DNA of 64,000 nt from a bacterium (GTDB taxonomy: Bacteria > UBP6 > UBA1177 > G963667425). Below are positions 4,884 through 64,000 of this stretch, in pieces. The notes beneath the pieces were generated by a model. That model saw only the letters and a program-made list of their open reading frames with translations, had not been told where the DNA came from and did not search any database. The position numbers and the translations under genes are program-made. Position 1 is the stretch's first letter, and every line of letters starts with the position of its first letter. The stretch lies in contig OY763407.1 of assembly GCA_963667425.1 (NCBI GenBank), positions 1,930,281-1,994,280 of the forward strand. The letters are read 5' to 3'.

Positions 4884-7433
4884 TTATGGAAGTTCGTAGT
4901 AAATTTCTTTAGGAACATCAACTTTTTCAGCTAAACTTCCTGTTCCAAGTTTGCCGTACCCTCCATCTCCCCAGCAGTAAACTTTACCTTCCGTATCATA
5001 AGCACATGTGTGCTGAACTCCTGTAGTTATTCCTTCAAGTTTTTTTCCATTTAAAGCACCATTCATATTAACTGAAACAGGAACTGTACTGAAGTAATCA
5101 ATATCACCTTCTTTATGATTACCATTACCAAGCTCACCAGAATTTCCTGAGCCCCAGCAGTATGCCTTGCCATCATCATCAAGAGCACATGTGTAATAAT
5201 AACCTGTTGAAATTTTTATCAGTTTTTTTCCATTTAAAACACCGGAAGAATCCACTTCTATTGGCTCAAAAACATTATAATTACCCTCTTCTTCATTATA
5301 TCTCCCATCTCCTAAAGCACCATCTAGTCCACCGCCCCAACAATATGCTTTTCCTTCATCTGAAACTGCACAGGCATGCCCTCCGACGTGTGAATTTATT
5401 GCACTTATATCAACAATCTTTTTGTCTTTAAGAACTCCTGAATAGTTAATAGGTGCAGGCAGAAAATTACAATTGGATGTCGTTCCCATAACACCATAAC
5501 CAGCGCTTCCCCAACAATAGACTTTTCCATTAACATCAATAGCACAAGTATATCCTTGTCCAGCCGTTATCTTCACAAATCTTAATTCACCTGATTTAAC
5601 AGAAAGAGGTACTGCACTAATTCTATAAGACCCTGTTCCGAGCTGTCCTTTTCCCCAGCAGTAAGCTTCACCTCTGTCATCAAGAGCACATGCATGCCCC
5701 AGAGCGACAGCTAATTTAACAAGTTTCTTCCCTTTAAGAATGTCTGACGTATCAACAGCAACCGGTACAAGACTTGTTTCTTTTAAACCATTACCAAGCT
5801 CTCCATTTTCACCGTATCCCCAGCAATATGCTTTACCCTCATCATCCAGAGCACATGTATATCCATATGCGCCGCTTGTACCTCCTGCTGATTTTATCTC
5901 TACAATCTTTTTACAGTTTAAAACACCATAAGTATTAACCCTTTTGGGCAGCATTTCATAAGAAATTCCGTTTAAGACATCGAATCCTTCAACTCCATCA
6001 CCCAATTCTCCATATTCCTGACTTCCCCAGCAGTAAGCAGTTCCTTTATCATCCACAGCACATGTATGTTCTGAACCGGCAGAAAGAGAAATAACCTTTT
6101 TCCCATATAATTCACTTCTTCTATTTAAAAAAAGAGAATGTGGAGCTATTGCATCATTCACAGAGAAATCACCAATCTCACCTGAAATACCTTTTCCCCA
6201 GCAGTAAGCCCCGCCTTCACTGTCAAGAGCACATGTGTGATAGTTACCAGTTGTTATAAAGACAATATGTTTTTCTTTAAGAACGCCTTCAGAATAAACT
6301 GCTATGGGAGCATTACACAAATTACCATCACACTCCTCTTCCTTATCTTCACCATTCCCAAGTTCTCCATAAGAATCATCTCCCCAGCAGTAAATTTCCC
6401 CTTCATTATCAAGAATACATGAATGCCAGTATCCTGGAGCAAGAGAAACCCATTTCTTTTTCATATACGCAAGTTCATCAATCATATCAGAGTTGCCATA
6501 AGCTCGATAGTACCCATAAGCCCACCTATGAAGAACACCCTCAGTATCTATAGCACCGCGACTGGTTATGGAAACAAACTTTACATCACTCAAATTGTTA
6601 TTGACCTTTTCTGGAACAAGAGCATATTCATCACTTCTGTTACCATTTTCATCACACGAAGCATGACCCCAGCAATAACCTTTCCCGTCAGAATCAAGAG
6701 CACATGTGTTTGACTTATGGGCACTTATAAATGTAAAAGAAGTATTTTCAGGAAGCATTGACAAATCTACAGCCACAGGAACAGAACTGTCCTCTATCGT
6801 ACCGTTTCCAAGCTGACCTTCATCATTTTTTCCCCAGCAGTAGATGCCGCCACTATCATCAAGTGCACATGAATGATATTCTCCCGAAGTAAGTCCAACT
6901 ATTTTTTTATCTTTCATAATACCGTTCATATCAACATCAACAGGTACCATATTTTTTTCATTAGACCCATTACCGAGCTGTCCATATTCTCCCGAGCCCC
7001 AGCAATAAATTCTTCCAGCATCATCAAGAACACACGAGTGACTGTAACCAACAGTTAATATTTTTATTTCTCCCGCATTTCTTATATCAATTTTCTGAGG
7101 CGAAGCAGAATCGTAAAGTCCACCGAAACAGTAAACAGTATTTAATTCAGTAACCGCACAGGTTGCTCCATATGCACCAATCATTTTTATCTTTATTTTA
7201 TCTTCCTGAAAATCATCATCCGGCAGACATAATTCTGAAATATCAGGATTAGGGAAATTAAAATCTTCATCGGAAAAATCTTCATCAATCAGGTCAGCAT
7301 CAGCACTCTCAGCATTATCAGCATCAGATAAAATATCAGCATCATTGTTTTCAGAATAAACCGGATTGTTTTCCTTCGTACATGAAAGAAGATTTGAAAT
7401 TAAAAGTAATAAAACAATAAACATACTTTTCAT
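4884..7433 (-). CDS. RCC1-repeat (beta-propeller) lipoprotein
   Basis: Signal peptide plus lipobox (LLSC), acidic linker (DADILSDADNAESADADLIDEDFSDEDF), then about 13 repeats of the pattern G-x-x-H-[ST]-C-A-[LV]-D-x-x-G-x-x-Y-C-W-G-x-x-x-x-G-[EQ]-L-G-[ND]-G typical of RCC1 blades. Confidence 0.8.
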   Translation of the reverse strand: MKSMFIVLLLLISNLLSCTKENNPVYSENNDADILSDADNAESADADLIDEDFSDEDFNFPNPDISELCLPDDDFQEDKIKIKMIGAYGATCAVTELNTVYCFGGLYDSASPQKIDIRNAGEIKILTVGYSHSCVLDDAGRIYCWGSGEYGQLGNGSNEKNMVPVDVDMNGIMKDKKIVGLTSGEYHSCALDDSGGIYCWGKNDEGQLGNGTIEDSSVPVAVDLSMLPENTSFTFISAHKSNTCALDSDGKGYCWGHASCDENGNRSDEYALVPEKVNNNLSDVKFVSITSRGAIDTEGVLHRWAYGYYRAYGNSDMIDELAYMKKKWVSLAPGYWHSCILDNEGEIYCWGDDSYGELGNGEDKEEECDGNLCNAPIAVYSEGVLKEKHIVFITTGNYHTCALDSEGGAYCWGKGISGEIGDFSVNDAIAPHSLFLNRRSELYGKKVISLSAGSEHTCAVDDKGTAYCWGSQEYGELGDGVEGFDVLNGISYEMLPKRVNTYGVLNCKKIVEIKSAGGTSGAYGYTCALDDEGKAYCWGYGENGELGNGLKETSLVPVAVDTSDILKGKKLVKLAVALGHACALDDRGEAYCWGKGQLGTGSYRISAVPLSVKSGELRFVKITAGQGYTCAIDVNGKVYCWGSAGYGVMGTTSNCNFLPAPINYSGVLKDKKIVDISAINSHVGGHACAVSDEGKAYCWGGGLDGALGDGRYNEEEGNYNVFEPIEVDSSGVLNGKKLIKISTGYYYTCALDDDGKAYCWGSGNSGELGNGNHKEGDIDYFSTVPVSVNMNGALNGKKLEGITTGVQHTCAYDTEGKVYCWGDGGYGKLGTGSLAEKVDVPKEIYYELP

Positions 7434-7725
7434 TACTGACTCCTCAATAATTTTTTAACAAAAAGATATTATTTATCAAATACTTTAACATTTCATATTA
7501 CAACAACAAAGATTATCACTGAAATATTTTAAATCAAGAAACATTACAACATAATTTATAAATAAGATGCTCCAGACACTGTCAAAACTGTTTTTTCCTG
7601 CTGTTAATAACCTTGGGAGGAACAATTGCTCCTTATTGAGTGCCCATTCTCTCTTTGCGGATAGTGATTGATCCTTATTATGTAATGATTCTCACTTTTC
7701 TTGTTCTGTTTTTGTTACTGCGTGT

Positions 7726-8038
7726 AGTGATTGCAGTCAATTTTGGTCTGAACGCTCTCAATCATGGACTGAACGGACCAAATATTGGTCTCATCGTCTC
7801 CAATTTTGGTCTGATTGCCTCCAATTGACGAGTGATTACTCTCCATCGTGGTCTGAACGTTCACAATCATGGACTGAACGCACCAAATATTGGTCTAATC
7901 CTCTCCGATTTTGGTCTGATTGCACCCAATTGACGAGTGATTACTCTCCATCGTGGTCTGAACGCTCTCAATCATGGACTGAACGCGCCAAATATTGGTC
8001 TAATCTTCTCCAATTTTGGTCTGAGTGTTCTAAATTTT
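7726..8038. repeat. Tandem direct repeat, ~105-bp unit in ~3 copies, with an internal GGTCTGA-type core motif recurring about every 21-31 bp
   Basis: Near-identical units beginning GTGATT(GCAGTCAA/ACTCTCCATCGT)TTTTGGTCTGAACG...CAATCATGGACTGAACG...CCAAATATTGGTCT..ATC...TTTTGGTCTGATTGC..CCAATTGACGA at about 7726, 7832 and 7937. The array is intergenic, between the 3' end of the DUF3332 gene and the start of the RCC1 gene. Confidence 0.7.
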
Positions 8039-8068
8039 CAGGTAATTGCTAAATTATTCTGACTTTGT

Positions 8069-8491
8069 TTAATGATTTTCCTGGGCAAGTTCAACGATTG
8101 TCCATGAGCCTGCTGATGTTGAATATGCAACAACTTTCTGTTCGTCCGTTTCTTTGTCTTTTACTGTAAAGCCTTTGTTTGTAGCGGTCACTTCATAGAT
8201 TTTTCCGGCGTATTCTATCTCTTCGGTCTCACTTTCTCCGTCATTCATTGCCATAGGATTTTTCCCACCCCAGAATTCGATTACGTTCAAGACTAGAATG
8301 TCACCTGCTAAAGAAACTATATAGACCGGTATTATCCAGAATGCAAAGTGAACTGCCGAACGGGCATATTTGTTGTTTATTGTACCGTTCCACTTGTTCA
8401 TTCTGTTGAACATCTGATTTGAACCGAAGCATCCGCTTAGCATTACTGCTGCCATAAACATAAGAATTATGTTTCTTATTTGTTTTTTCAT
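8069..8491 (-). CDS. DUF3332-family lipoprotein
   Basis: Start placed at the internal Met (MKKQIRNIILMFMAAVMLSGCFGSN...) whose ATG overlaps the MATE stop in an ATGA arrangement. Lipobox LSGC followed by the motif WIIPVYIVSLAGDILVLNVIEFWGGKNP characteristic of DUF3332. The longer 232-aa ORF would overlap the MATE gene. Confidence 0.6.
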   Translation of the reverse strand: MKKQIRNIILMFMAAVMLSGCFGSNQMFNRMNKWNGTINNKYARSAVHFAFWIIPVYIVSLAGDILVLNVIEFWGGKNPMAMNDGESETEEIEYAGKIYEVTATNKGFTVKDKETDEQKVVAYSTSAGSWTIVELAQENH

Positions 8492-9867
8492 ATTACTCTC
8501 CTTTTCCATTTGCCGCTTTTTAAAAAAGCGAGGGCTATTATAACTGTAAAGAAGTTTCCAAGTGTCATTCCGATCCATGCTCCGCCGGATCCGTATCCTA
8601 AAAATATGCCGAGAAGATAAACTAACGGCAGTCTGAATATCCATAGTCTGAAGATTCCGAGTATTAATACCGGCATGTTTACGCCTGCGGCACTGAATGT
8701 GGCGTTTACAGATCTGAGTATTCCGAATAATGGTATTGCCGAGCCGAAATATAGAAGGAATCTGCATCCTTCTTCTATTATGTCAGGTTCATCAGGGATA
8801 AATACCGAAACTAGTTCTCTTCTGAAAAAAACCATCAGCGCTGTTTCGGCCAGCAGGACTACAAACATTGTGAGCATCCCTTCTTTTACCGATTTTGCTG
8901 CCGATTTTATCATGTCTGCGCCAAGTTTCTGTCCTATGATTGTGGTCAGTGACTGCGCGAATCCCATCATTGCAATTGATGCAAGGCTTATAAGTCTGCT
9001 TCCTATTCCGTAAGCCGCCAGGGCTGTTCTTGAATTGTCGAGCTGTCCTATTATAAAAGATAGAATTACAAATCCTAATGCTTCGGCTGAGTGTCCGACT
9101 GCTGCCGGGAAACCTACTTTTACAACTTTTTTTATCCACAAAAGGTCAGGTACCATGTTTTTCAGGTTTATGCTGATTCCTTTTTTTCCTTCAAAGAGAT
9201 AGTAAACTGCAACGAGCGCCGAAAATACGCCTGAGATTACTGTTGCTATTGCGGCTCCTTTAACGCCCATTGCCGGTATAGGTCCGATTCCTGTTATAAA
9301 GAAGGGATCGAGTATTACATTTATGATGTTGCTTATAATTGTGATTACCATTGGGGTAAAACTGTTCCCTGTTGATGTGAGCAGCGAACGGAAAACTCCG
9401 TTGATGAACATAAACGGCAGCCCAACAGCCAGAACTGTTATGTATTCGGACGAAGCTTTAAGTATGGCGGCATCTGAGGTAACAAAGCTTAAAACTTTTC
9501 CTCCTGCAATAAAAAGAAGTGCCGATGAAACGACTCCACTTATTAATGCAAGCGATAAAACTTGTGCGCCTGCTTTATCTGCTTCATCAATTCTCCCTGC
9601 TCCGTTAAACTGGCTTACAAATGCTACACCAGCCATCGAGAATCCCATTATAAATGCAACAAGAAACCATATTATCGGAAAACTTATCTGAAGTGCGGCA
9701 ACGGAATTGCCTCCTTCTCCTCCTGAAAGCCTGCCAAGCCAGAAAGTATCAACAAGCTGATAAACTGTGTCGAGAAGGCTTGCCAGCATTATCGGCCAGC
9801 CTAGTTTCAAGAGCAGTTTGGGCGTGCTTAAAGAGAGTATTTCTTCTGTGGATATTTTTTTTTTCAT
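8488..9867 (-). CDS. MATE-family multidrug/efflux transporter
   Basis: 459 aa, about 12 TM helices; N-terminus (LLKLGWPIMLASLLDTVYQLVDTFWLGRL) is typical of NorM/DinF-type MATE proteins. Confidence 0.8.
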   Translation of the reverse strand: MKKKISTEEILSLSTPKLLLKLGWPIMLASLLDTVYQLVDTFWLGRLSGGEGGNSVAALQISFPIIWFLVAFIMGFSMAGVAFVSQFNGAGRIDEADKAGAQVLSLALISGVVSSALLFIAGGKVLSFVTSDAAILKASSEYITVLAVGLPFMFINGVFRSLLTSTGNSFTPMVITIISNIINVILDPFFITGIGPIPAMGVKGAAIATVISGVFSALVAVYYLFEGKKGISINLKNMVPDLLWIKKVVKVGFPAAVGHSAEALGFVILSFIIGQLDNSRTALAAYGIGSRLISLASIAMMGFAQSLTTIIGQKLGADMIKSAAKSVKEGMLTMFVVLLAETALMVFFRRELVSVFIPDEPDIIEEGCRFLLYFGSAIPLFGILRSVNATFSAAGVNMPVLILGIFRLWIFRLPLVYLLGIFLGYGSGGAWIGMTLGNFFTVIIALAFLKSGKWKRRVI

Positions 9868-9868
9868 T

Positions 9869-10348
9869 TTAATAGTACCTTAAAAAAGCCTGATCGCCTA
9901 CTTTAAGGTTTAAAGAGTCATAAGAATTTACTTCGAGAACAAAAACTGTACTTACTTTGCTGTAAACAGGAATCATTGAGAATGGTTTTCCATATTCTAT
10001 CGAATTTATTTTCATGTTCATGTCAAAATAAATTATAGAAAGGGGAATTTGTGTATCTTTCATCCAGAATGCACGCCTTTCAGGTACATCAAACAGAAAG
10101 AAAAGTCCTCTTTCCTTTGACAGTAACTGACAATTCATCAGCCCCTGTTTATGTTCCTGAGGTGTTTCAGCTATCCCTGACTGAAAAGTTTTTATCAGCT
10201 TTCCTTCTCTTTTTATTTCTATTTCAACTTCATTTTTGTATCCGCATATAGTTTCAGCAGAAACTACGAAAGAAAAAAATATAAGAAAAAGAGTTAAAAT
10301 AATAAGAAAAAATTTTCTGTATAAAAGCATTGATTTTAAGTAATTCAA
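9869..10348 (-). CDS. DUF192 (COG1430) family exported protein
   Basis: Signal peptide, then conserved DUF192 blocks (QGLMN, FWMKDTQIPLSIIYFD, VFVLEV). Its stop is 1 nt from the MATE start. Confidence 0.6.
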   Translation of the reverse strand: MNYLKSMLLYRKFFLIILTLFLIFFSFVVSAETICGYKNEVEIEIKREGKLIKTFQSGIAETPQEHKQGLMNCQLLSKERGLFFLFDVPERRAFWMKDTQIPLSIIYFDMNMKINSIEYGKPFSMIPVYSKVSTVFVLEVNSYDSLNLKVGDQAFLRYY

Positions 10349-19564: not shown

Positions 19565-21043
19565 CTATTCCAGTTCTTTCAAGGTTTTTTCTGCTTTTTT
19601 GTAAGTATCATTATCTGCATTTACAAGCTTAAGAATAGATCTTAAAAGCTCTTTTGCTTTTGTAGGATTAAAATTCTTAGTTACATTAGCCTTTGAGTAA
19701 AGCTTTTTAACCAATTCATCCTTACTGTCAAGCCATTCCTGACATTCTGATTTATCCGGATCTTTATCTATACATTTTTCATAATTTTCATTTGCTGCAA
19801 CATAGTCATCCTTCTTTTCCATAGCAAGAGCTTTTGCATAGTAACCTATCGCATAAACTTTATCTACACTTTGAGAGAAGTTTGTACCGCCATCAACAAT
19901 TTCCTTATCAAGAGAAACAGCTGCTTCAAGATTGTCCAGGATAAGGTTATGATTTAAAAGTTTTATACCTTCAACAATTTTTGAACGAACTTTGTTAAAA
20001 GCCATAAGCTGTGTTTTAAGCGCAAGAACTTTTGCATCTTCTTCACATTCACATTTATATTTCTCAACTTTAAGAATCATTCTGATAGCATCATTGTATT
20101 TTCCTTCAGAACACATATCTATAACTTTATTTCTTGCAGATTCGAGCTTGGAAGCATTCGTCTTAAGCTGTCCTTCTTTATTTTTTGCTTTCTGTGAACG
20201 TTCCATTTCTCTCTGACGTCTTTCATTCTCAAGACGTTCCATCTCATCCTGTCTTCTTTTACGTTCAACATTTGCTTTTCTTTTTACTTCTTCTCTTTCT
20301 CTTCTTTTCTTTTCTTCTTCTATTCTACGCTGTTGTTCAAGCTCTCTTCTACGAGTTTCTTTTTCTTCAGCGATTTTTCTTTCTCTTTCTTCTTCTTTTC
20401 TTCTCTCAATTTCTTCACGTTTTTGTCTTTCTGCTTCTCTTTTCTGTTTAAGCTCGTCTTCTCTTTTCTGTCTGTCACGTTCTTCCTGAAGTCTTTTTTC
20501 TTCACGTTCTCTTCTTTCTCTTTCCATTGAAGAATTTCTTGAACTTGAACGATCATTACTTCTAGCTCCAGCTTTTACTTCATCATAAACACTTGAAAGT
20601 GCACTTTTAGAGAGTTTCCACAAAGCTGCGGCTGAAATATCTTTTGCTCGACCAAAAGAGTTACTCGAAGAACCAATAATTTCTTCATCAAGAAGACTTA
20701 TTGCTATCATTTTCACAAGCATTTCATCGTTATCGTCAATTTTTACTGACGTAAGAACAGCATAGTCAAATCCTGCCCTTTCCGCTGCATCAGCATTCTC
20801 ACCCCAACAGAATTCATCACTGCCACAAGAAGCAACCTTTTGAGCAAGAGACCTGTTTGATGAAAGAAGATCATCATACGAGATGAAATTAAACTTCTTC
20901 TTAAAAACAGTATAGAGATTTTTGTCAATTTTCTTTGCATCACTTCTGTTAATATCTTTCGTAACTGGAGACATTAAAAGAACCTTTCCTGCAAAAAGTG
21001 GCAACGTAACCAATAAAACTATAAGGACTAAATACCTTTTCAC
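19565..21043 (-). CDS. Exported protein with ~125-aa E/R/K-rich predicted single alpha-helix and a C-terminal helical (TPR-like) domain
   Basis: GTG start with AGGAGG 5 nt upstream; signal peptide (MKRYLVLIVLLVTLPLFAG); central low-complexity ERREREEKRLQEERDRQKRE... region; C-terminal helical region. Hypothetical. Confidence 0.55.
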   Translation of the reverse strand: MKRYLVLIVLLVTLPLFAGKVLLMSPVTKDINRSDAKKIDKNLYTVFKKKFNFISYDDLLSSNRSLAQKVASCGSDEFCWGENADAAERAGFDYAVLTSVKIDDNDEMLVKMIAISLLDEEIIGSSSNSFGRAKDISAAALWKLSKSALSSVYDEVKAGARSNDRSSSRNSSMERERREREEKRLQEERDRQKREDELKQKREAERQKREEIERRKEEERERKIAEEKETRRRELEQQRRIEEEKKRREREEVKRKANVERKRRQDEMERLENERRQREMERSQKAKNKEGQLKTNASKLESARNKVIDMCSEGKYNDAIRMILKVEKYKCECEEDAKVLALKTQLMAFNKVRSKIVEGIKLLNHNLILDNLEAAVSLDKEIVDGGTNFSQSVDKVYAIGYYAKALAMEKKDDYVAANENYEKCIDKDPDKSECQEWLDSKDELVKKLYSKANVTKNFNPTKAKELLRSILKLVNADNDTYKKAEKTLKELE

Positions 21044-61836: not shown

Positions 61837-63147
61837 CTATTTCAGAACAACGCCCCATTCAAGAAGTGAAAACCCTTTTCTTTCAAAACTTTTTATCTCT
61901 GGCTTAGCAAGAAAATCCCTGCAGGTATCATCTTTTTTTATGACATAAAAAAGACGCTGAACAGAATCAGGAGTTTTGGAAATATTTATTTTTATCAGCT
62001 TATCTATCTCATCTGCTGTCTGAGGATAAATATCATAACAGCTTTCATTAAGTCTTGGAATCCACCATTCAATAAAATCTTCCACTTCCTTACCTTTAAA
62101 ACCGTAACGAGCAAGATTTTCTCTGAAAAATTTCTCCAGATTATCCTTTTTCACTGTCCAGCCAGTTTTATACTGATAAAAATCAGGATGCTGAGCTTCA
62201 TAAAAAAGATATCCATATTCACCATTAATCGTTCCATCAGGTTCAACCGTAACATTCCATCCATCACCATATTCAGGAATAGATTTTGTTACAAAACCGC
62301 CCTGAGGAAATTCAAGTGAAAGAGAAATATCCATTTTTTCTTCAGGATAAAGGTAAATATTTGGCTTATAATCCTGAGCCATCGCAGAAACTCTTATATC
62401 AATATAATTTGAATCTATAGAAACCGGCTCATCATATTGAGAACCATCAGAATCAGTAAAACTAAAAATATAATCGCCGATTGGAATATCAATAACAAAT
62501 TTACCGTTGGTACTAAAACAACCAACTTTTTTTCCATCTTTGTCATAAACTGTAACATCTGCAAATAAAGAAGAAGGACCAAAATAATCCTGAACTATAA
62601 AGATATTTCCATTAACATAGTTTTTCATAATGGGATCAAGATTTACCGATATGTTATCACCATATTCTGCATAAGTATAATTTGTAAAAAAACCTTCTGA
62701 TGTCTCATAAATAAAATATGAAGGAGTCTCGCCGTTGTAAGGATTTTCCTCATCAACTTCAATAACCTTGTTACCTTCACTTTGCATAGTTAAAGTATCA
62801 AGAAGATTCCCCCAGCCATTTGAATATACTGAAAGAATAATATTTTTTGCATCAGTATCAAGATTTTCATTACTGTATTCAACACTTAAATCTTTACATT
62901 CTGAAACAATATCATCATCTGCTGCTTCATCGTTTGTTTCATCAGAAATTTCATCATTTATCTCGTCAGCCACTTCATCTGCAGTTTCGTCGTTTATTTC
63001 ATCTGCAACTTCATCACTGATTTCATCAATATCAGTTTTAGGTTCAGCTTTATCATTGTCACATGAAATAAAAATAAAAATTAGTAAAAATACAAAAATT
63101 AAACTCTTCATAACATACCTCTTTATTATTTCTGCACAACGCCCCAT
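61837..63147 (-). CDS. Lipoprotein with acidic repeat linker (tandem paralog A)
   Basis: Signal peptide plus lipobox (FIFISCDND); repeats of DE[VI][AS]DE[IT]ND; beta-sandwich-like middle region and conserved C-terminal domain (FRENLARYGFKGKEVEDFIEWWIPRL ... LLEWGVVLK). Confidence 0.65.
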   Translation of the reverse strand: MGRCAEIIKRYVMKSLIFVFLLIFIFISCDNDKAEPKTDIDEISDEVADEINDETADEVADEINDEISDETNDEAADDDIVSECKDLSVEYSNENLDTDAKNIILSVYSNGWGNLLDTLTMQSEGNKVIEVDEENPYNGETPSYFIYETSEGFFTNYTYAEYGDNISVNLDPIMKNYVNGNIFIVQDYFGPSSLFADVTVYDKDGKKVGCFSTNGKFVIDIPIGDYIFSFTDSDGSQYDEPVSIDSNYIDIRVSAMAQDYKPNIYLYPEEKMDISLSLEFPQGGFVTKSIPEYGDGWNVTVEPDGTINGEYGYLFYEAQHPDFYQYKTGWTVKKDNLEKFFRENLARYGFKGKEVEDFIEWWIPRLNESCYDIYPQTADEIDKLIKINISKTPDSVQRLFYVIKKDDTCRDFLAKPEIKSFERKGFSLLEWGVVLK

Positions 63148-64000
63148 TCAAGAAGTGAAAAGCCTTTTCTTTCAAAACTTTTTATCTCTGGCTTAGCAAG
63201 AAAATCCCTGCAGGTATCATCTTTTTTTATAACATAAAAAAGACGCTGAATAGAATCAGGCGTTTTAGAAACATTTATTTTTATAACCTTATCTATCTCT
63301 TCTGCTGTCTGAGGATAAATATCATAACAGCTTTCATTAAGTCTTGGAATCCACCATTCAACAAAATCTTCTATTTCCTTACCTTTAAAGCCGTAACGAT
63401 CAAGATTTTCTCTGAAAAATTTCTCCAGATTATCTTTCTTTACCGTCCAACCGGTTTTATACTGATAAAAATCGGGTTGCTTTGCTTCGTAGAAAAGATA
63501 GCCGTATTCACCATCAATTGTTCCATCAGGTTCAACCGTAACATTCCACCCATCACCATATTCAGGAATAGATTTAACAACAGTTCCTCCTTTAGGAAAC
63601 TCAAGTGAAAGAGATATATTTTCTCTCTTTTCAGGGTAAAGATAAATATTTGGCTTGTCTACCTGAACAAGAGCATCTACAATAATTTCAATATAATTAG
63701 AATTTACAGTAACCGATTCATTATATTCAGAGTCATCAGAATCTGTAAAATTGAAAGTATAGTTTCCTGTAGGAAGATCAATTACAAACCTTCCATTTGC
63801 ATCAGCAGTAAAACAGCCAAATTTATTTCCATCACCATCGTAAACAGTCACATTACCTGTAAGCATTGAAGGACCAAAGTAATTCTGTAAAATAAAAATA
63901 TTTCCATTAATATAATTTTTCATAACCGGGTCAAGATCGACAAACACTGTTTCACCATATTTTGCATATTGAACATATGTAAAAAAACCTTCAGCTCTTT
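63126..64000 (-). CDS. Lipoprotein tandem paralog B (5' end beyond the window edge)
   Basis: The C-terminal ~270 aa align with paralog A at high identity (my estimate by eye, not computed). The reading frame stays open past the track start at 63947 to the window end and keeps aligning with paralog A (AEGFFTYVQYAKYGETVFV vs SEGFFTNYTYAEYGDNISV). Confidence 0.65.
   Translation of the reverse strand, partial: RAEGFFTYVQYAKYGETVFVDLDPVMKNYINGNIFILQNYFGPSMLTGNVTVYDGDGNKFGCFTADANGRFVIDLPTGNYTFNFTDSDDSEYNESVTVNSNYIEIIVDALVQVDKPNIYLYPEKRENISLSLEFPKGGTVVKSIPEYGDGWNVTVEPDGTIDGEYGYLFYEAKQPDFYQYKTGWTVKKDNLEKFFRENLDRYGFKGKEIEDFVEWWIPRLNESCYDIYPQTAEEIDKVIKINVSKTPDSIQRLFYVIKKDDTCRDFLAKPEIKSFERKGFSLLEWGVVQK

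Follow-up and report, generated by a model that had tools for sequence, protein, structure and literature searches.

Tandem repeats in bacterial genomes alter their copy number through slipped-strand misalignment, and a variable-number tandem repeat (VNTR) is a repeat whose copy number differs between strains at one locus with conserved flanks (PMC1781188). The bacterial minisatellite has been delimited operationally as a motif of at least 20 bp, present in at least two copies at 90% identity or more (PMC2884548). The locus described here, an intergenic array with a period of 105 bp, 2.7 copies, 92% matches and an identity of 0.90 at lag 105, is a bacterial minisatellite in this sense, with each 105-bp unit itself composed of 21-bp subunits. 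Descriptions of higher-order repeat structure come more often from eukaryotic satellites than from bacterial loci.

Regularly spaced direct repeats are also found in other bacterial settings. LytTR regulators recognise 9-bp direct repeats 21 bp apart, with the consensus [TA][AC][CA]GTTN[AG][TG], and their operators have two or three such sites, whereas the array considered here has twelve or more. CRISPR repeats measure approximately 23-47 bp and alternate with unique spacers of about the same length, and cas genes are usually found close by. The array was analysed within its window, i.e. the whole stretch of 64 kb under study, taken from the 2.95-Mb genome of a bacterium of the lineage UBP6.

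Architecture of the repeat array

The array lies in a spacer that extends from the stop codon of a DUF3332 gene to the start of an RCC1-like gene, with all flanking genes on the minus strand (Table 1). Tandem Repeats Finder reported it at 7744..8024 with a period of 105, 2.7 copies, 92% matches, no indels and a score of 492, which is far above the score of every other tandem repeat in the window. When laid out as 21-mers, the 105-bp unit resolves into exactly five 21-bp subunits, designated types A to E, and the third copy is truncated and diverges in its last subunit. A TGG(A/T)CTNA core is borne by 12 of the 14 phased 21-mers in 7744..8037, at a spacing of exactly 21 bp. An earlier note on this DNA had described an array at 7726-8038 of about three 105-bp units, with approximately 12 sites spaced roughly two helical turns apart, in a 635-bp intergenic region between the DUF3332 and RCC1-like genes; the period, the copy number, the four cores that it quoted, the number and spacing of the sites and the spacer length are all confirmed.

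Identity within the array reaches 0.90 at lag 105 and 0.61 at lag 21, and the inner copies are 88-92% alike. In the subunit identity matrix, subunits of the same type are identical across copies at 18-21 of 21 positions, compared with 7-17 of 21 for subunits of different types, indicating that a 21-bp array diversified first and that the five-subunit block was amplified later.

Table 1. Coordinates of the array, its subunits, the surrounding spacer and the flanking genes within the window.
Feature	Coordinates	Strand	Remarks
RCC1-like gene	4884..7433	-	849 aa; Pfam RCC1, RCC1_2, WD40_RLD; lipoprotein-type N-terminus (..LLSC); array upstream
Repeat-free AT-rich part of spacer	7434..7638	-	Immediately upstream of RCC1-like gene
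Decayed fourth copy (copy 0)	7639..7743	none	RCC1-proximal side; subunits resemble E type (xGTGATT)
Open frame across array	7687..8052	+	Heptads WSERSQS WTERTKY WSHRLQF WSDCLQL TSDYSPS; judged no gene
Array, well-preserved part	7744..8037	none	2.8 copies of 105-bp unit = 14 phased 21-mers
Copy 1	7744-7848		
Copy 2	7849-7953		
Copy 3	7954-8037		
Subunit A of 105-bp unit			TGGTCTGAACGCTCTCAATCA
Subunit B of 105-bp unit			TGGACTGAACGGACCAAATAT
Subunit C of 105-bp unit			TGGTCTCATCGTCTCCAATTT
Subunit D of 105-bp unit			TGGTCTGATTGCCTCCAATTG
Subunit E of 105-bp unit	7828..7848; identical copy 7933-7953	none	ACGAGTGATTACTCTCCATCG; without core; sets 105-bp higher-order period
Last 21-mer	8038..8058	none	TCAGGTAATTGCTAAATTATT; barely recognisable; distal edge of array
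DUF3332 lipoprotein gene	8069..8491	-	140 aa; Pfam; last gene of DUF192-MATE-DUF3332 operon
MATE transporter gene	8488-9867	-	Pfam
DUF192 gene	9869-10348	-	Pfam

The well-preserved copies are preceded, on the side of the RCC1-like gene, by a more divergent stretch of one unit length (copy 0). Compared in register with copy 1, it is identical at 45 of 105 positions, against 28.2 +/- 4.3 in shuffles (p = 0.0004), and the in-register offset is the best among the 21 offsets compared. Identity at lag 21 is likewise elevated in 7597-7743 (p = 0.0045); there is no lag-21 signal in 7434-7638, nor past the distal side of the array, where it fades beyond approximately 8020. Together, the match of copy 0 and the raised lag-21 identity point to an array of about four units with an eroded edge toward the RCC1-like gene, so that the extent given in the earlier note covers the core array but begins too late to take in the decayed copy. 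At the opposite edge, the last 21-mer stops 10 nt short of the DUF3332 stop codon at 8069-8071. In all, the array occupies two thirds of the spacer. Its GC content is 44%, compared with 30% for the remainder of the spacer and 35% for the genome, which is unusual for drifting intergenic DNA.

Differences between copies are unevenly distributed along the subunits. A 13-14-bp block, CAAwwwTGGwCTgA, spans the subunit junction and shows little or no variation among the 12 core-type subunits, leaving a variable stretch of 7-8 bp per subunit between successive blocks. Only nine columns vary between full copies, eight of them at phases 11-17 of the 21-mer, and this clustering within a 7-bp stretch has a probability of approximately 0.008 after correction for any 7-phase window. 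Within the block there are short inverted repeats at the subunit junctions (CCAAATATTGG, CCAATTTTGG and CAATTG), which also explain the local hairpins in predicted folds. Two sequences, GATAGTGATT and CCAATTTTGG, bear a weak, by-eye resemblance to Fur-box or CArG-like sites. Intrinsic bending through helically phased A/T was also considered and was dropped, the 10.5-bp A/T periodicity not being significant against column-permuted arrays (p = 0.087).

The repeat is confined to this one place within the DNA covered. The degenerate core TGGWCTVAWYS has 10 matches in 64 kb, all within the array, where 1.45 +/- 1.14 would be expected in the window; all six matches to TGGTCTGA in the window are likewise within the array; and the E subunit, searched with up to 3 mismatches allowed, is found in the window only as its two exact copies in the array. 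By the core, the conserved block and the E subunit, there is thus no copy of the array unit beyond the array in the 64-kb window of the 2.95-Mb genome.

Genomic setting

The window is ordinary chromosome, encoding Lon, ThiL, MgtE, a ribosomal-protein/RpoA block, a hybrid histidine kinase and a type II secretion cluster. Upstream of the array in the direction of transcription, the ATG of the DUF3332 gene overlaps the MATE stop codon. On the other side, the promoter of the RCC1-like gene likely lies, judging by its sequence, in the repeat-free part of the spacer (7434..7638), which contains sigma-70-like matches at 7496-7468 and 7479-7450 (consensus matches only; 9 against 4.4 +/- 2.3 expected), and a GGAG ribosome-binding site precedes the RCC1-like ATG at 7433. 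Annotation of approximately 50 window ORFs with Pfam and NCBIfam identified no rep or cas gene in the 64 kb, no dnaA, par or integrase gene and no gene for a DNA-binding regulator in the vicinity of the array, and no LytTR or other DNA-binding response regulator anywhere in the window, the sole two-component protein of which is the hybrid kinase. Many of the window ORFs have no Pfam or NCBIfam match, or have scores below the curated cut-offs, and such sparse family matches fit a deep-branching, poorly sampled lineage that uses Shine-Dalgarno sites. No tRNA gene was found in the 64-kb window.

Several other repeats were observed in the window. Within the RCC1-like gene, eleven RCC1 blades are recognisable in 4938-7040 as DNA direct repeats (60-80% identity over 52-75 nt) spaced approximately 165-330 bp apart, which suggests a fairly recent internal amplification. 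A 300-nt direct repeat with 95% identity occupies 61838-62137 and 63127-63426, 1.29 kb apart, and a 125-nt direct repeat with 78% identity occupies 62573-62697 and 63868-63992 at the same 1.29-kb spacing; both fall in the 3' parts of the adjacent minus-strand ORFs 61837-63147 (no Pfam match) and 63126-63947, an arrangement that resembles the outcome of a recent tandem gene duplication or of conversion still under way. The former ORF also contains 24/36-bp coding tandem repeats at 62925-63028. Finally, T/C-rich tandem repeats with periods of 5-24 lie at 20271-20485, inside the minus-strand ORF 19565-21043 (492 aa, no Pfam family), where they probably encode a low-complexity stretch rich in Glu, Lys and Arg.

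Conservation in relatives

The RCC1-like, DUF3332, MATE and Lon proteins are all singleton clusters at 90% identity, and the exact sequences of the flanking proteins are indexed on no other contig. No other strain and no near relative of the organism has been recorded. The RCC1-like protein has no homologue above approximately 40% identity and therefore provided no synteny. The closest MATE relative is 83% identical and is encoded on a contig of 2.4 kb, which stops 63 bp beyond the gene, while MATE homologues at approximately 50% identity have different neighbourhoods and are not syntenic. For the DUF3332 protein there is one relative (P0306, 67% amino acid identity), from the same sequencing run as the 83% MATE relative. 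Its contig, L075, carries the DUF3332 gene and, after a spacer of 498 bp, the beginning of a further lipoprotein gene in the same orientation, of which the 86 residues present are too few to call RCC1 orthology. Identity between L075 and the window at the DNA level is 76% over 382 bp, the similarity ending inside the DUF3332 gene.

The 498-bp spacer of L075 contains neither a tandem repeat nor a TGGWCTNA core, and the CCAA-N2-3-TTGG palindrome is likewise missing. Given this absence at the orthologous position in one fairly distant relative, the array does not appear to be a conserved part, or a conserved regulatory element, of the locus. The earlier note had raised the prospect of a widespread intergenic filler without positional conservation; positional conservation is indeed lacking by the comparison with L075, but the repeat is not widespread, occurring once in 64 kb.

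The downstream lipoprotein gene of L075 has an 18-bp coding tandem repeat at 1320-1405, GATGGAAATGATGGTGAA, giving DGNDGE, and the RCC1-like gene of the window has a 9-bp coding repeat at 7299-7324 in the equivalent acidic linker, so that both downstream lipoproteins have N-terminal linkers built from repeats. A separate observation concerns the MATE gene end in the relatives. Contigs L004 (2300-2407) and L075 (190-245) have in common approximately 45 bp of the MATE 3' end and the first 13 bases of the next gene, and then diverge, L004 having DUF192-MATE followed by unrelated sequence and L075 a non-MATE ORF, a remnant of the MATE end and then DUF3332. This junction reflects either two related genomes with a rearrangement or an assembly branch point.

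Look-alike arrays in other genomes

Three loci matched when 185,579 species genomes were scanned for a pair of TGGWCTGAACG cores at a distance of 21 bp; they belong to Chondromyces apiculatus, a Saprospiraceae MAG and a Draconibacterium MAG, and all are 21-bp tandem arrays. None has the arrangement seen in the window, the source genome of which may be missing from the collection. The extended block, when searched for in metagenomes, matched 18 loci, which once more are all 21-bp arrays. The look-alikes, with GC contents of 35-63%, have nothing in common with the window except the specified bases, and their neighbours are unrelated, including MazG and a PKD/T9SS protein in one case and TPR and DNA methylase genes in another. 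In a viral collection searched for three units at 21-bp spacing, the true core returned 9 loci and permuted cores of the same composition returned 7, 28 and 5.

A search pattern that consists of the same word twice at a fixed distance selects tandem repeats by design, and the unrelated units and neighbours, together with the permuted-core counts, indicate that the look-alikes were drawn by chance from a very large pool of 21-bp minisatellites. On the same evidence, a cross-phylum family of 21-bp arrays sharing GG(A/T)CTGAACG was rejected. More generally, searches of large databases for a short core at fixed spacing can be expected to return mostly unrelated minisatellites, and a permuted-core control is needed before a family is claimed. 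The Draconibacterium locus (L003, 500-830) is an unrelated 21-bp array of TGGTCTGMACGGTCRCTCCGT with approximately 10 units, flanked by three copies of CTTTGCAAAATA and adjoining DNA methylase and DUF6996/DUF6997 genes.

Coding, RNA and replication signals

The plus-strand frame that is open across the array has no ATG or GTG start, and its earliest possible start, a TTG at 7825, lies 138 bp in. None of the candidate starts at 7640, 7685, 7825 and 7937 is preceded by a Shine-Dalgarno sequence; GGAG-type sites are present at the right distance for the RCC1, DUF3332 and OPT genes. The nine variable columns of the array split 3:3:3 over codon positions, with no third-position bias, and all three minus-strand frames over the array contain stops. 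A HMMER search with the 121-residue translation against 1.84 billion representative proteins gave 63 matches at E <= 0.001, with 15-41% identity, and no orthologue of the array translation among them; the five matches that were inspected comprise a TPR protein and other heptad-repeat translations, e.g. WTEYSKY(n) and VWSFRTQ(n). Judged by their sequences, these are matches of periodicity and not of orthology. The earlier suggestion that the ORFs called here merely translate the repeat is borne out by the start codons, the ribosome-binding sites, the variable columns and the protein matches alike, and ORF callers evidently turn arrays of this kind into spurious heptad 'proteins'.

A search of Rfam 15 gave no match in the 64-kb window at gathering score, despite the presence of a ribosomal-protein/EF-Tu/EF-G/RpoA block, and none in 7639-8058 at E <= 10. 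Ribosomal leader RNAs are often found in such blocks. No intrinsic terminator was predicted in 7200-8600, which makes read-through from the DUF3332 operon into the array plausible. Fold z-scores of the array are -2.4 on the minus strand and -2.7 on the plus strand, values that are not unusual for a tandem repeat containing small palindromes.

The cumulative GC skew shows no turn at the array, DnaA boxes (TTATCCACA, at most 1 mismatch) number 21 in the window against 18.2 expected with none in 7434-8068, and plasmid and phage records contain no match to the array. A CRISPR array was considered and rejected, the units being contiguous, the variable part only 7-8 bp and no cas family being present in the window.

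Discussion

The array is best explained as a young, lineage-specific, non-coding higher-order minisatellite that arose by slippage or unequal recombination, a reading to which a probability of approximately 0.6 is assigned. Under this scenario, a 21-bp motif would first have been amplified head-to-tail, with the copies diverging into subunit types A to E. The five-subunit 105-bp block would then have multiplied, through replication slippage or unequal homologous recombination, until about four copies were present; of these, the outer one on the side of the RCC1-like gene would since have decayed. Most probably the array itself serves no sequence-specific function, and any effect would be exerted via its length, e.g. 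as spacing or insulation between the end of the operon and the next promoter. A 105-bp repeat with 92% identity would also be expected to gain and lose units.

The main alternative is an operator array, in which the 12 core-type sites, or up to approximately 19 phased 21-mers if E-type and decayed units are counted, would be bound by a sequence-specific, probably dimeric DNA-binding or nucleoid-associated protein. Seated on one helix face every two turns, such a protein might form a cooperative filament or a wrapped complex at 310-600 bp from the RCC1-like lipoprotein gene, on its upstream side, and activate or silence it. This is considered an unlikely but tenable explanation. The exact 21-bp spacing, the short inverted repeats at the junctions, the position upstream of the RCC1-like gene and the GC content above that of the rest of the spacer are all as it would predict, as is the conserved 13-14-bp block with differences clustered in the variable 7-8 bp between blocks, which matches the expectation of purifying selection on binding sites. 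The clustering, however, has a neutral explanation in conversion between subunit types, which alters only positions that already differ and so confines variation to them as well. Moreover, the spacer of L075 is without such sites, annotation of the 64 kb revealed no gene for a DNA-binding protein, the array is more than 250 bp from the likely promoter, the core is not enriched among 21-bp arrays elsewhere, the look-alike arrays have no common gene context and the helical-phase A/T periodicity falls short of significance. A specific lead, that of a LytTR operator, arose because the A and B cores, read as their reverse complement (..CGTTCAG..), fit the 9-bp consensus, but it was rejected, the GTT part occurring only in the A and B subunits and no LytTR gene lying nearby. 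In its most elaborate form the operator explanation becomes a 'landing strip', in which 12 or more phased, selected, palindrome-bearing sites would be cooperatively bound every two helical turns by a protein of this lineage, building a long nucleoprotein filament that switches the RCC1-like surface lipoprotein on or off, with gain or loss of 105-bp units tuning or phase-varying the response; on the sequence features available, this extended version is a speculative one and decidedly improbable. If a protein did bind the conserved block, the surface lipoprotein gene would have upstream of it a phased operator of unusual length.

An element acting at the RNA level, whether as the minus-strand 3' tail of the DUF3332 operon, as a leader of the RCC1-like gene or as a plus-strand small RNA, is a distinctly remote alternative. 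It would act via repeated motifs, such as minus-strand GGAG-type sequences that bind the anti-Shine-Dalgarno or short hairpins, and it draws on the plausibility of operon read-through, on the presence of GGAG on the minus strand in three of the five subunits and on the mildly negative fold z-scores. Those z-scores are nevertheless what short junction palindromes would produce in any tandem repeat, copy 2 of subunit D has lost its GGAG (GCACCC), Rfam gave no match even at the most permissive threshold, the array is not bracketed by a promoter-plus-terminator pair, and L075 lacks it. Translation into a small repeat protein, through either the frame at 7687-8052 with its W-x6 heptads or a 47-62-aa ORF ending at 7828, is very improbable. 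While frame +0 is free of stops through the entire array and the ORF 7640/7685..7828 opens with a hydrophobic, transmembrane-like stretch, an open frame over a thrice-repeated 35-codon unit is not improbable in itself; the long frame lacks an ATG or GTG, the Shine-Dalgarno sites seen as GGAG at neighbouring genes are absent, variation is spread evenly over codon positions, the representative proteins yielded only TPR and unrelated heptad-minisatellite translations, and the frame is absent from L075. The iteron-like element proposed as one option in the earlier note, i.e. an iteron cluster of a replication origin or integrated replicon, is effectively refuted. The same-orientation direct repeats of approximately 21 bp are within the size range of iterons, but the setting is one of chromosomal housekeeping genes (Lon, ThiL, the ribosomal-protein/RpoA block and type II secretion) with no rep, dnaA, par or integrase gene adjoining, the skew does not turn, DnaA boxes are at chance frequency with none in the spacer, and plasmid and phage records do not match.

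As it stands, the higher-order minisatellite is of little wider significance, being a clean two-level repeat (21 bp within 105 bp) from a bacterium whose deep-branching lineage has barely been sampled, although it would become a convenient strain-typing marker if more isolates appear. Its structure is tidy and the observation is solid, and nothing found here would surprise a specialist.

Comparison with known systems

The array can be compared with several described repeat classes. Cyanobacterial SDR, REP/REPIN-type and MITE families have many dispersed copies, whereas all copies in the part of the genome covered here, the 64-kb window, are in one array. Iterons of plasmid and some chromosomal origins resemble it in having same-orientation repeats of approximately 20 bp at a spacing of about two helical turns; unlike them, the array lacks an initiator gene and a mobile-element context, is not accompanied by an AT-rich unwinding element with DnaA boxes and does not coincide with a turn of the GC skew. 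LytTR operators, such as those of AgrA, AlgR and ComE, share with it direct repeats at a centre-to-centre spacing of 21 bp, but the GTT part of their sites is missing from the C, D and E subunits. A difference from the usual bacterial minisatellite and VNTR loci lies in the clear two-level 21-in-105-bp structure, and a literature search for a 105-bp tandem repeat returned no paper. Like those loci, as used in MLVA and exemplified by the mycobacterial MIRU type, it consists of head-to-tail units at least 90% alike at a single intergenic locus between co-oriented genes, is expected to vary in copy number through slippage or recombination and is translated by ORF callers, and among the options listed in the earlier note the variable-number tandem repeat appears, from its sequence organisation, to be the best fit in kind.
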